Sequence record: MK373778.1
DNA length: 64,000 nt
DNA from: Escherichia phage vB_EcoM_WFbE185
Strand: one strand, 5' to 3'
In this document: piece by piece, positions 41,086 through 44,570 of the stretch
How positions within the stretch are numbered: position 1 is the stretch's first letter
Layout: every line of letters begins with the position of its first letter
Program-made: the position numbers and the translations under genes
The notes under the pieces: model-generated
What the model was told of the DNA's origin: nothing
Seen by the model: the letters and a program-made list of their open reading frames with translations, nothing else
The model's database searches: none

Positions 41086-41550
41086 TTATTTAATTTGTTT
41101 AGCAGACCAGATACGGTCTTTAATAAGTTTTTGGATATCTTCAACATACTCAAGGCTATGAGCGTGAGGATTATCTTTGAAGCTATGTGCTCGAGCGAGT
41201 TTCTGACCTTCAGTTTTGATTACCAAAAGTTCTTTAAGAATTGCTTCATACTTAGAAATAATTCCTTTGGCGATATTTTTTTCTTGAGCTGCTTTAGGGT
41301 CCGCTTTTGGTGATGGTGCTTTACCTGTAGCTTTCTGGAACAATTCACCTGATGCAGCTAGGCTTTTAAAAACTCGACTAACAGTATTAGCATTAGTAAA
41401 TCCTTCAGCTTTAAAATCTCTAATAAAACGGAAACGTTCTTCATCAGAGGCGTCTTTATAAGAATATTTACCTGCTTGAATTGCTGCAATTGCTGCGGCT
41501 TTTACATCTGAACTAGATTGTTCAGTCAAAAATTCTGCATATGATTTCAT
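41086..41550 (-). CDS. Internal protein with capsid-targeting sequence, 154 aa
   Basis: N-terminus MKSYAEFLTEQ; Lys/Ala-rich. Confidence 0.55.
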   Translation of the reverse strand: MKSYAEFLTEQSSSDVKAAAIAAIQAGKYSYKDASDEERFRFIRDFKAEGFTNANTVSRVFKSLAASGELFQKATGKAPSPKADPKAAQEKNIAKGIISKYEAILKELLVIKTEGQKLARAHSFKDNPHAHSLEYVEDIQKLIKDRIWSAKQIK

Positions 41551-41594
41551 GTTACTTTTCCTAAGTTAATTAACTTATCTATTTATTATTATGC

Positions 41595-41622
41595 AAAAAA
41601 GCCCCAACCTTTCGGAAGGGGC
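41595..41622 (-). terminator. Rho-independent terminator, conserved GCCCC...GGGGC motif
   Basis: Minus reads GCCCCTTCCGAAAGGTTGGGGCTTTTTT. Confidence 0.6.
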
Positions 41623-41665
41623 TATATACCTTGTCGGGGTCCCACCTGCTAAGGCAAGTGTTTGT

Positions 41666-41757
41666 ACGAAACGCCGGGATTCGAACCCGGTTATTAAGCA
41701 GTTGACGCTACTCAATATTTTTAAAAGGCCATATCTCGTCCATATCCGAACGTTCCG
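41666..41757 (-). ncRNA. tRNA-like element (canonical T-arm and 7-bp acceptor stem, atypical interior)
   Basis: Minus reads CGGAACG...CCGGGTTCGAATCCCGG-CGTTTCG; the 60-nt interior does not fold as a standard D or anticodon arm. Confidence 0.3.
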
Positions 41758-41925
41758 TCAAAAACGCTACTCGGCTTACGGCAAAGATATTTCCTCGAAT
41801 CGATAATTCTGTGCGCCGTTTCTGCTGTGATGTGAGGGGATATTAACAAATCGTAAAGATTTGTTAAGACCAGTCCTTACTCAGGGAACATCAGTCCGAC
41901 GTCTTGCCGGTAGCGACCCGGCTTC

Positions 41926-42270
41926 TTATTTTGGCATATCATCAATTTGCTCTCGACGCCGACGCCATAGATTAATCGCTTCATAGGCACATTCTGCGTT
42001 TGGTATATGACGGCAATAATATAATGATTCGCGTTTCTGGAACCGATGTTGCAACGGGATTTCGTTTAAAAGGTCTTTACGGTCAAAGTATTCAAAACTA
42101 GTTAACCCGGAACGGTTTTTAAGAAACTTCCAATGTCCGAATTCATTTTTAAAATAAACATAATCAGCATGTTGATATAATGAATTAATTAACCTATCGG
42201 AAATAACTGTTTCACGTTCGTTAAAATAAAACGTTAAATCATGAACTACCAGATACACATTGCCTTTCAT
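41926..42270 (-). CDS. Hypothetical protein, about 114 aa, embedded in the tRNA cluster
   Basis: ORF track 41926..42318 trimmed to ATG 42270 so it does not overlap tRNA-Arg. Confidence 0.45.
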   Translation of the reverse strand: MKGNVYLVVHDLTFYFNERETVISDRLINSLYQHADYVYFKNEFGHWKFLKNRSGLTSFEYFDRKDLLNEIPLQHRFQKRESLYYCRHIPNAECAYEAINLWRRRREQIDDMPK

Positions 42271-42288
42271 ATTTTCCTCACTTGAAGT

Positions 42289-42365
42289 TGGTCGAGACAG
42301 AAGGATTCTAACCTTCAACCTACGGATTAGAAGTCCGTTGCTCTATACAATTGAGCTATGCCTCG
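42289..42365 (-). tRNA. tRNA-Arg (anticodon UCU), CCA encoded
   Basis: Hand fold: acceptor CGAGGCA/TGTCTCG, D-stem GCTC/GAGC, anticodon stem ACGGA/TCCGT with loop CTTCTAA, T-stem GAAGG/CCTTC, 3-prime ACCA. Confidence 0.7.
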
Positions 42366-42371
42366 AATATA

Positions 42372-42445
42372 TGACCCAGACCAGATTCGAACTGGTAACC
42401 TTTCCCTTATGAGGGGACTGCTGCTAACCATTGAGCTACAGGGCC
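42372..42445 (-). tRNA. tRNA with CAU anticodon (Ile2 or Met)
   Basis: Hand fold: T-arm ACCAG-TTCGAAT-CTGGT, anticodon loop CTCATAA, D-loop AATGGTTA; one mismatch in acceptor stem; CCA not encoded. Confidence 0.6.
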
Positions 42446-42524
42446 TAAATAACTTTCTATTATGAAAGGCACTTTAGAGCACCTTTGGTAATAGAGGGTA
42501 TGAATTAATAATAACACATAATTC

Positions 42525-43040
42525 TTAAAGCAAATCAATCATTTTAACAGTCGGCAAAACGATTTCTTCTTCAATATAAGCAAATTCAACACATTCAACT
42601 ACACGCAAGAAATCATAATCATAATATTCAGAAGCATGGCCAAGAATATCAATGAGACCTTCTGATACTAAATATCCATTCTCATGGAACAGGTCAAATA
42701 CACGCGATTCGTCTTCTTCAGATTTATTACCAAGGTCGACTTCAATATCAAAGACCTTTTTAATGAATTCTGGATAAAGCTGGTCCGAGAACAATCCTTC
42801 AACCAAGTATTCATAGATTAAAAGCGAGCAATCACTGAATAGTGTATTACCACAGTAACGTTCAGCTTTAGTGCTAGAATGACGACTCTTAAATTTCTTC
42901 AAAAGATATTTAAACTGTTGGAGCTCATGCTCTTCCACACCAAATAATGTTTTGGTTTTATAGTTGTCGCCGTCATTTTCCCAAGTAGTGACATCAATTA
43001 CGTAACCCTTAGGAATTGTACTGCCTAAACAAATATTCAT
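42525..43040 (-). CDS. Hypothetical acidic protein, 171 aa
   Basis: ORF track. Confidence 0.5.
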   Translation of the reverse strand: MNICLGSTIPKGYVIDVTTWENDGDNYKTKTLFGVEEHELQQFKYLLKKFKSRHSSTKAERYCGNTLFSDCSLLIYEYLVEGLFSDQLYPEFIKKVFDIEVDLGNKSEEDESRVFDLFHENGYLVSEGLIDILGHASEYYDYDFLRVVECVEFAYIEEEIVLPTVKMIDLL

Positions 43041-43044
43041 TTAC

Positions 43045-43335
43045 TCACCGTACCATATTAATGTAATTATATTCAATGCAACGTAATTTCAAAGGATTTT
43101 TGAAAATATCATATTCAAGAGGACCTTTTTCTGTTTCAATAAAGAAATCAAAGTTCACTGTATTAAATTTACGGTCTTCCCATAGTAATTTGACCTGTGA
43201 AGACGAACGGTCGATATAAACCTTTTCAACCTCAAAGTTAGTCAGAATACCGTAGTCGTCAACTAGTGCTTTAGCTGCACGTTGATCGCTTTCATATCCG
43301 TTCTCAATAGATGACACTTTAGCATAAAGAATCAT
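43045..43335 (-). CDS. Hypothetical protein, 96 aa
   Basis: ORF track. Confidence 0.5.
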   Translation of the reverse strand: MILYAKVSSIENGYESDQRAAKALVDDYGILTNFEVEKVYIDRSSSQVKLLWEDRKFNTVNFDFFIETEKGPLEYDIFKNPLKLRCIEYNYINMVR

Positions 43336-43727
43336 GAATGTTCCACCACTTCAAAGGTGTGAGCATCAACAATATGATACCAGTCAAAATTTTCTTCTGC
43401 GTTTTTATAAATTTCGCGAAGAGCCTCAACGGTTTTTCCTGTAGCAACAAGGTCGTCAATACCACCAAGAGGATAACAGTCGTAACCAGCAAACAGAAGG
43501 AAATTAATAGTTTCTGTAGGTTCTGGATGCAGTGTACCATTGTCATCGACTACTTCAAAGAACATATAACCAGGCGATTTAGATTTAATCCAAGCCCATG
43601 CTTGAGCTGCTGAATCAAATGGTTTGCGTATCAAACGACAATCAGGGTCTTTAGAAGGATTTGCTTCAAAATCCGCATATACGTGATATTTCATTTTACT
43701 CACCTTTTGCAATTTTATCCATAACAA
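43332..43727 (-). CDS. Hypothetical protein, 131 aa
   Basis: ORF track. Confidence 0.5.
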   Translation of the reverse strand: MLWIKLQKVSKMKYHVYADFEANPSKDPDCRLIRKPFDSAAQAWAWIKSKSPGYMFFEVVDDNGTLHPEPTETINFLLFAGYDCYPLGGIDDLVATGKTVEALREIYKNAEENFDWYHIVDAHTFEVVEHS

Positions 43728-43881
43728 TAGCGATTAAACCGATTAGAAATGCTACTACCAATGAGATAGAATTTTCAGTTGTTGTCAGTAGTCCGCAAAT
43801 GAATCCTACAAACATCGAAAAACTAAAAGCCATTGAAGCAATTACTACAGCAACATTACGAATCAGTTCAGCGCGTTTCAT
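43696..43881 (-). CDS. Small membrane protein, about 61 aa
   Basis: ORF track 43696..43902 trimmed to ATG 43881 with SD GGAG. Confidence 0.45.
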   Translation of the reverse strand: MKRAELIRNVAVVIASMAFSFSMFVGFICGLLTTTENSISLVVAFLIGLIAIVMDKIAKGE

Positions 43882-43918
43882 TTTATTTCTCCGTTTACTC
43901 ATTTGTTTTGATAGGACT

Positions 43919-43948
43919 ACTATAACATAGTCCTATCATCATGTAAAC
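43919..43948 (-). promoter_or_regulatory. Sigma70-type early promoter inside perfect palindrome
   Basis: GTTTAC-18-TATAGT; arms GATAGGACTA / TAGTCCTATC at 43910-43937. Confidence 0.55.
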
Positions 43949-43950
43949 TA

Positions 43951-44214
43951 TTAAATTCCAGCTTCGCGTTTAACATAATCAACATAAGCTTCGATAGCTT
44001 TCTTGCTGGTAATTTTTACCTGGCCACGTCCATTGCCTTCTTTAGAGTTTTTCTTAACAACTACATTACCATCTTTAACACCCCATACATGGACATAAGT
44101 ACCGATGTTTCGGTCGTAGAACATTGCATGGTCGTTGTTGTAAGAGAATGATTCGTAGTTCTCCGACAGAGTAGAAGATTGAGATTCAGCGATAAATTCT
44201 TTATACGTTTTCAT
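43951..44214 (-). CDS. Internal protein with capsid-targeting sequence, 87 aa
   Basis: N-terminus MKTYKEFIAES. Confidence 0.6.
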   Translation of the reverse strand: MKTYKEFIAESQSSTLSENYESFSYNNDHAMFYDRNIGTYVHVWGVKDGNVVVKKNSKEGNGRGQVKITSKKAIEAYVDYVKREAGI

Positions 44215-44249
44215 TTGTTTTTCCGTTTGGTTGTTGATTTGATAGGACT

Positions 44250-44279
44250 ACTATAACATAGTCCTATCGGCATGTAAAC
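44250..44279 (-). promoter_or_regulatory. Sigma70-type early promoter inside perfect palindrome
   Basis: TTTACA-17-TATAGT preceded by TG; arms GATAGGACTA / TAGTCCTATC at 44241-44268. Confidence 0.55.
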
Positions 44280-44282
44280 TAC

Positions 44283-44570
44283 TTACAGAAGAGTTTTTGC
44301 AATAATTTTAAGCTGAGCTACAGAAATATGCTTAGCTTTAAACAGTGCAGTCTCTTCGGCCGGAGAGATAACAATAGTAGCGCCGTCTTTCTTAGCAGAC
44401 CATCCGTCCCCTAAGTAAACAGTACCTTTTACTTCTTCACCGTCAACCAGACTAATCATTGGTTTACCCTCACGTCCTTTATTTGCTTTAATAACTTCGG
44501 AAGTAAGGGTTGCTTCGGTTAGAGTAGAAACGTTAGCATCAGGTGATATAAATTCTTTATAGGTTTTCAT
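44283..44570 (-). CDS. Internal protein with capsid-targeting sequence, 95 aa
   Basis: N-terminus MKTYKEFISPDANVSTLTEA. Confidence 0.6.
   Translation of the reverse strand: MKTYKEFISPDANVSTLTEATLTSEVIKANKGREGKPMISLVDGEEVKGTVYLGDGWSAKKDGATIVISPAEETALFKAKHISVAQLKIIAKTLL

Follow-up and report, generated by a model that had tools for sequence, protein, structure and literature searches.

Six reading frames with a capsid-targeting motif in an RB69-like genome

The 64,000-nucleotide stretch of the Escherichia phage vB_EcoM_WFbE185 genome analyzed here (MK373778.1; the whole of it is called the window below) encodes, around its tRNA genes, three small open reading frames (ORFs) whose products start like the internal proteins (Ips) of phage T4. 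ORF A (41086-41550) codes for 154 residues starting with MKSYAEFLTE/Q, ORF B (43951-44214) for 87 residues starting with MKTYKEFIAE/SQSSTLSE/N, and ORF C (44283-44570) for 95 residues starting with MKTYKEFISPDANVSTLTEA, the slashes marking predicted cleavage sites. All three lie on the minus strand, and they matched exactly the coordinates and N-termini that had been given for them in a reading of the sequence alone (hereafter, the sequence-only reading). ORFs A and B are treated here as candidate internal proteins, and ORF C as the ortholog of T4 IPI.

The window phage is an RB69-like (Mosigvirus-type) T4-like phage, with a G+C content of 37.4% in the window. Over the full length of the region from 40900 to 44700, Shigella phage JK45 and E. 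coli O157 typing phage 3 share 96% identity with the window, and many Mosigvirus (RB69-like) phages share 92-96%. Its gene order is T4-like, with gene 1, 57A, 57B, ipI, trna.4-.2, the tRNAs, rnaD, rnaC, the e.x genes, e, and the ipII/ipIII region, all on the minus strand.

A six-frame scan of the window for M-K-[STM]-Y-x-E-F-[IL]-x-[EP], the motif of the capsid-targeting sequence (CTS), returned six matches, every one of them at the start of an ORF (31912-32214, 32278-32538, 33017-33298, 41086-41550, 43951-44214, and 44283-44570), where 200 shuffles of the window returned none. The total of six given in the sequence-only reading is therefore correct. The 30 nucleotides coding for the CTS form a six-copy repeat family (D4) with 73-87% identity between copies. 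Similarity among the six proteins ends after the first 9-24 residues, except for two longer but weak alignments with the IPII ORF (ORF D), one of ORF A over ~43 residues and one of ORF C at 27% identity.

Only the small size of the ORFs would speak for an N-terminal similarity arising by chance or composition, in ORFs that would not be genes. This explanation was refuted by the shuffles, by the purifying selection acting on the three ORFs in comparison with their relatives (ratio of nonsynonymous to synonymous substitution rates, dN/dS, of 0.03-0.23), by their conservation in 35 to 511 genomes, and by strong PHROG and Pfam matches, so that it retains hardly any probability. ORFs A, B, and C are real genes.

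In T4 IPIII, targeting depends on residues 4 and 7 and processing on residues 8 and 10 (PMC9026906), and the first 10 residues suffice to load foreign proteins into the T4 head (PMC9026906, PMC3012670); the cleavage motif of the prohead protease gp21 is L/I-x-E. The N-termini of the three proteins (MKSYAEFLTE in ORF A, MKTYKEFIAE in ORF B, and MKTYKEFISP in ORF C) all contain Y4 and F7. ORFs A and B retain the four positions; in ORF C, Y4, F7, and I8 are retained, and the site used is an LTE further along the chain, as in T4 IPI. Cleavage is predicted at LTE 8-10 in ORF A, at IAE 8-10 and LSE 16-18 in ORF B, and at LTE 17-19 in ORF C. The experimentally defined residues of T4 IPIII and a gp21 site are thus present, as the attribution of a CTS to all three ORFs had implied. 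All three mature products are predicted to be small and basic, with isoelectric points (pI) of 8.9-9.6 (ORF A, 144 residues, 16.0 kDa, pI 9.6; ORF B, about 8.7 kDa, pI 8.9; ORF C, 8.0 kDa, pI 9.0), compared to 9.0-9.7 for T4 IPI*, IPII*, and IPIII*.

The IPI ortholog and the cassettes of ORFs A and B

ORF C matched the Pfam family PF11634 (IPI_T4) over the whole profile (E = 1.4e-50, positions 1-76 of 76), a family that neither ORF A nor ORF B matched, and its 95 residues share 88% identity with T4 IPI. The IPI* chain of PDB entry 2JUB is matched over its entire length by residues 20-95 of ORF C (72 of 76 identical), and the gp21 cut predicted after LTE19 coincides with the N-terminus (residue 1) of that solved chain. 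As residue 20 of ORF C corresponds to residue 1 of 2JUB, the predicted cut is the experimentally known mature N-terminus, which delimits a propeptide of residues 1-19 (MKTYKEFISPDANVSTLTE) and a mature IPI* of residues 20-95. ORF C adjoins 57B, as in T4, with 57B, 57A, and gene 1 upstream, and was found in 291 phage records. It is the ortholog of the classical T4 IPI and not an extra protein.

For the IPI of RB69, four differences from the T4 protein were reported, as many as mature ORF C has, and that IPI reportedly protects RB69 against GmrSD restriction (PMC6024577). From its orthology to the T4 and RB69 proteins, ORF C would be packaged and injected. In a comparison with T4 ipI (L005:10092-10379), dN/dS was 0.02 for the mature domain and 0.24 for the 19-residue propeptide; the propeptide is far less constrained than the mature domain, although it bears the packaging signal. 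An early promoter (GTTTACA-N17-TACTAT, preceded by TG) lies upstream of ORF C on the minus strand (44596-44634).

ORF B fills the slot between ipI and trna.4, which is the known hyperplastic ipI locus. At this position, phage Shf125875 has Ip7, and T4 and APCEc01 run from ipI through one early promoter to trna.4 with no ORF. An early promoter combined with a stem-loop (PeSL-like; 44241-44279, minus strand, repeat families D1-D3, 9-bp stem, -16.6 kcal/mol) is the upstream repeat copy and drives ORF B, and a second copy of this promoter and stem-loop (43910-43948, minus strand) drives trna.4 and forms the downstream boundary of the cassette. The repeats around ORF B are two 39-bp copies of GTTTACATG..GATAGGACTATGTTATAGTAGTCCTATC that are 92% identical, and the flanking promoter reads TTTACA-N17-TATAGT with TG before it. 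PeSL (promoter-early stem-loop) elements are mobile regulatory cassettes of T4-type phages through which ORFs are reportedly shuffled, and they are associated with the gain, loss, and replacement of ORFs (Arbiol 2010, Comeau 2014; PMC2839356, PMC4122927). As in a PeSL-bounded cassette, ORF B lies between direct repeats, and its presence or absence in relatives changes at exactly those repeats.

The promoter with its embedded 9-bp stem-loop (ATAGGACTA/TAGTCCTAT), 50-66 nucleotides long, occurs in at least six or seven copies between 32214 and 44640 (for example at 35996-36047, 37291-37342, 40388-40439, 43903-43954, 44234-44285, and 44589-44640). These PeSL-like copies precede many small accessory ORFs and not ip genes alone.

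ORF B was found in 35 of 50,697 phage records, labeled hypothetical throughout, with a dN/dS of 0.23, and phrog_13302 matches only its residues 16-87. None of the records gives it an Ip name, and the lack of named homologs in the protein collections suggests, indirectly, that it is distinct from Ip8-Ip12. In an exhaustive HMMER search of 1.84 billion representatives, its family consisted of three clusters, that of ORF B and two others, both lacking the CTS. One of these contains gp015 of the Dhakavirus phages IME341 and IME08 (73 residues; L004:2495-2716 in IME341), which lies between the topoisomerase gene 52 and motA and is preceded by a terminator and its own early promoter. The other contains a 72-residue homolog on a T4-like contig (L010:4001-4219), beside genes for a DnaB-like helicase and an Rv2179c-like exonuclease. 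ORF B and gp015 differ by exactly 12 codons, TYKEFIAESQSS, placed after the initial MK. The cargo domain of ORF B is thus found both with and without a predicted packaging tag. A CTS hidden upstream of IME341 gp015 was considered and rejected, as a stop codon stands 12 codons upstream and the gene comes after the terminator and the early promoter.

ORF A belongs to phrog_2280 (unknown function, E = 2e-53) and was found in 511 phage records from Mosigvirus, Tequatrovirus, and the Klebsiella-infecting Jiaodavirus, always just downstream of the tRNA and stable-RNA cluster. It is annotated as hypothetical in every record and in every cluster member listed. The 30 nucleotides coding for its CTS (41521-41550, minus strand, encoding Y4, F7, L8, and E10) belong to family D4 and are 83% identical to the ipII copy. 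A late-promoter box, AATAAATA (41580-41587, minus strand), lies 29 nucleotides upstream of its ATG, directly after the terminator hairpin that ends the rnaD/rnaC unit (41595-41622, minus strand, repeat family D16, -18.0 kcal/mol). There is no early promoter before ORF A. Its homologs in wV7 (Tequatrovirus) and in Klebsiella phage Mineola have the canonical box TATAAATA at the same place, and among the natural variants of T4 late promoters, an A instead of a T at position -13 is the most frequent (9 of 50 sites; PMC2988020). Such a box would fit a protein made at the time when proheads assemble. The sequence-only reading had given each of the three ORFs its own early promoter, which proved right for ORFs B and C (TTTACA-N17-TATAGT and TACTAT, respectively, with TG before) but not for ORF A, whose box after the rnaC terminator is of the late type.

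A second copy of the terminator hairpin, 84% identical to the first, lies 3′ of ORF A (41046-41077, minus strand), and the sequence past this second terminator (GGTATCTAGG) matches the T4 sequence that follows its single rnaC terminator. ORF A is absent from T4 and from Yersinia phage PST. The duplicated terminators, together with this absence, indicate that ORF A is a cassette of late promoter, ORF, and terminator that was gained or lost between terminator repeats. We looked for a remnant of ORF A in T4 and found none, as homology stops right after the rnaC terminator, where the relatives have the late promoter.

Compared to its wV7 homolog, ORF A has a dN/dS of 0.08. The CTS is kept in every full-length member of the family, as MK[ST]Y.[EQ]FL...E or, in Mineola, as MKFKEFLAE, and both the CTS and the N-terminal domain are conserved in Mosigvirus, Tequatrovirus, and Jiaodavirus. 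The Mineola homolog (L006:2495-3028) shares residues 1-88 with ORF A at 54% identity (alignment 4-88), while its C-terminal half is unrelated, which suggests domain swapping within this candidate internal-protein family. Residues 1-45 of ORF A also resemble residues 1-43 of IPII (hhalign probability 88%, 37% identity over 43-45 residues), and ORF A gave a weak match to phrog_7857, the IPII family. In an AlphaFold2 (AF2) model of ORF A (pLDDT 74), the CTS is disordered, residues 13-70 form a helical domain, and a Pro/Lys linker leads to a helical hairpin at residues 85-151. An identity with IpIV of PST was considered, the Tequatrovirus homologs having the same length (157 residues), and rejected, since there is no similarity past the CTS. 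Neither ORF A nor ORF B had a hit in the PDB sequence search or in NCBIfam or a significant Pfam match.

These properties of ORF A could also suggest a structural or DNA-organizing component of the head core, with a morphogenetic or DNA-binding role like that of IPIII or IPII, instead of an anti-defense effector. The gene is widespread (511 genomes) and syntenic, it is apparently expressed late only, its product is predicted to be strongly basic with a long helical hairpin, and IPIII mutants show head-assembly aberrations (PMC9026906). We nevertheless consider this role improbable: T4 and PST build normal heads without ORF A, its C-terminal half is swapped in Klebsiella phages, and its presence/absence and modular pattern are typical of accessory arms-race genes. 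Even IPIII, with its morphogenetic phenotype, proved to be a GmrSD inhibitor (PMC12373910).

The three other CTS ORFs, all on the minus strand, lie around e and denV. ORF D (31912-32214) is the IPII ortholog (93% identity to T4 IPII; phrog_7857, E = 4.5e-55) and has an early promoter. ORF E (32278-32538, 86 residues, MKMYQEFIAE) lies between denV and ipII and was found in 217 phage records, some of them annotated as internal head protein. ORF F (33017-33298, 93 residues) is IpV-like (48% identity to IpV of Yersinia phage PST), belongs to phrog_3499 (internal head protein), was found in 496 records, and stands directly after the lysozyme gene e. No IPIII homolog was detected in the window. The six CTS ORFs are therefore two classical proteins, IPI and IPII, and four others. 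The sequence-only reading had set all six against the three classical T4 internal proteins; by counting IPI and IPII among the extras, it overstated the expansion.

The start codon of ORF F overlaps the stop codon of gene e (33295-33298), ORF E starts 7 nucleotides past the denV stop (32538-32545), and neither has a promoter of its own. These two ORFs are thus probably co-transcribed, and possibly translationally coupled, with the upstream genes.

Between ORFs A and B, blastn located rnaC (41665-41803, 97.8% identity to T4 rnaC) and rnaD (41811-41929, 84% identity to T4 rnaD), both on the minus strand. ARAGORN and Rfam identified tRNA-Arg(UCU) and tRNA-Met(CAU) (42289-42445, minus strand); these two tRNAs were all that Rfam detected, rnaC and rnaD being missed. 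The locus has two tRNA genes here, compared to eight in T4 and eleven in wV7, and there is no segB homing endonuclease in the interval. An ORF with a TTG start (41926-42318) overlaps tRNA-Arg; in relatives, the corresponding RB69ORF150c-like gene (114 residues) starts at an internal ATG (MKGNVYLVV...) and shares ~4 nucleotides at its 3′ end with rnaD.

Proposed packaging, injection, and targets

The explanation that we favor, with a probability of roughly 70%, is that ORFs A, B, and C are T4-type internal proteins, that A and B are most likely further injected inhibitors, and that the set was built by cassette exchange. Each precursor would bind the prohead scaffolding core through its N-terminal CTS of ~10 residues and would then be cut by gp21 after L/I-x-E, at E10 in ORFs A and B and at E19 in ORF C. 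The small basic mature protein would stay in the head with the DNA, enter the host with it, and act there before any phage gene is expressed. ORF C, as IPI, would inhibit the CT596-type GmrSD type IV restriction enzyme. We infer for ORFs A and B packaging, injection, and an inhibition of first-line DNA-targeting host defenses, other variants of the GmrSD family being the leading candidate targets. The set would have been assembled by exchange of cassettes, ORF B between the promoter/stem-loop repeats and ORF A between the duplicated terminators, and ORF B combines a CTS with a cargo domain that is used elsewhere in T4-like phages as an ordinary early gene.

Several observations weigh against this explanation. 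The comparison with the internal-protein loci of related phages that the sequence-only reading had proposed placed ORFs B and C at the ipI locus but ORF A outside both recognized Ip loci (ipI by 57B, and ipII/ipIII by e/denV), between rnaC and the e.8/ORF146c region; position at an Ip locus is a habit of the family and not a mechanistic requirement. Only early-type promoters lie directly upstream of ORFs B and C, and the nearest canonical late box (TATAAATA) is ~1.1 kb upstream, in gene 1 at 45695. In T4, synthesis of the internal proteins takes place early as well as late. The residue after the predicted cut is Q in ORF A and A in its Tequatrovirus and Klebsiella-phage homologs as well as in T4 IPII and IPIII. 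Fold searches with ORF A gave no meaningful match, and the AF2 model of ORF B (pLDDT 44) was unusable. No published virion proteomics or injection data were found for ORF A or B, neither is among the only 13 proteins of the SH7 virion proteome, and no database labels either of them as an internal protein. Finally, ip4-10 showed no reproducible inhibition when challenged with eight active GmrSD systems (PMC12373910), so it is not established that all Ips act on GmrSD.

Part of these points would also fit an origin of the CTS-like N-terminus of ORF A, of ORF B, or of both simply by descent from or recombination with ip genes, the proteins being packaged inefficiently and working as ordinary intracellular accessory proteins after infection. 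The closest relatives of ORF B outside Mosigvirus are plain early genes at other loci and lack the CTS, ORF B itself has an early promoter only, and no annotation or proteome names ORF A or B as a virion protein. This origin nonetheless appears rather unlikely to us. Both proteins retain the four CTS positions that experiments have shown to matter, and, since T4 heads load foreign proteins fused to these 10 residues, an intact CTS is expected to be sufficient. Moreover, the promoter of ORF A is late and not early, and its CTS was kept in three genera, even in a Klebsiella phage with a replaced C-terminal half.

Within the favored explanation of A and B as injected inhibitors, a bolder reading can be put forward, though only tentatively and with less than even confidence. 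ORF A would mark a third, widely conserved, late-transcribed internal-protein locus, encoding an injected inhibitor that derives from IPII and has an exchangeable C-terminal domain for specificity. ORF B would be one effector domain deployed either by injection (with the CTS, in Mosigvirus) or by early transcription (without it, in Dhakavirus and another T4-like lineage), and both would be untried inhibitor families. ORF B would then be a natural experiment on the speed that counter-defense needs, and both proteins might have targets other than the GmrSD subtypes that have been assayed.

Injected internal proteins are the first responders of phages against DNA-targeting immunity. Flagging ORF A (511 genomes) and ORF B (35) as likely Ips would correct hundreds of hypothetical-protein annotations and would add two candidate inhibitor families to screens like those that found the targets of Ip2 and Ip3. 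The forms of the B cargo with and without a CTS offer a direct test of whether its function requires injection or whether early expression would do. The established picture is unchanged by these additions, which extend the known catalog.

Comparison with known internal proteins

The GmrSD type IV restriction enzymes inhibited by Ip1, Ip2, and Ip3 differ from one another, that of Ip1 (IPI) being GmrSD-CT596, and the authors of that work predict GmrSD variants as targets of the remaining Ip-locus proteins (PMC12373910). IPIII is required to infect ECOR17. At least 10 Ips were described by Repoila et al. 1994, as cited in Rao & Black 2010 (PMC3012670) and Silas 2025 (PMC12373910), and the role of a diverse CTS set as injected defense inhibitors was restated in both of these papers (Rao & Black 2010, PMC3012670; Silas et al. 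2025, PMC12373910). The suggestion in the sequence-only reading that the CTS proteins are a candidate pool of anti-defense effectors agrees with Ip1-3 being GmrSD inhibitors (PMC12373910), but the novelty that it implied did not stand: an expanded, shuffled pool of injected CTS-tagged defense inhibitors in T-even phages is already published. Modestly new are ORFs A and B as unannotated candidates, the third locus that ORF A occupies, with transcription signals of the late type only and an N-terminal module resembling IPII, and the existence of the B cargo also as a CTS-less early gene.

ORF C resembles T4 IPI in its length (95 residues), its site next to 57B, and its 19-residue propeptide ending in [LI]TE/A (LTE/A in ORF C, ITE/A in T4). 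It differs by the four substitutions in the mature domain and by a propeptide that is only 12/19 identical. Its phage is RB69-like, and for that group arabinosyl-hydroxymethylcytosine (hmC), rather than glucosyl-hmC, was reported.

ORF A shares with T4 IPII (Ip2, the inhibitor of GmrSD-ECOR21/BrxU) the CTS, ~35 further N-terminal residues, and a basic character. However, its residues 46-154 are unrelated to IPII, it lies at another locus, and its promoter is of the late type, that of ipII being early; the window also contains an IPII ortholog besides ORF A. The cassette of ORF A likewise differs from PeSL cassettes, as it is bounded by duplicated terminator hairpins with a late promoter and has no early promoters at its bounds.

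The cassette of ORF B, on the other hand, is like the PeSL of the T4/PST pair, two phages with five IP differences (Comeau 2014), in having a TTTACA-N17-TATAGT promoter and an AGGA...TCCT stem-loop as direct repeats. In its slot, its CTS, and its layout of promoter, leader, and CTS, ORF B resembles the polymorphic Ip series of the ipI locus (Ip4-Ip12, IpIV-IpVI of PST, and Ip7 of Shf125875 and RB15), whereas its cargo is unlike IpI-VII, with which it shares no similarity past the first 11-24 residues.

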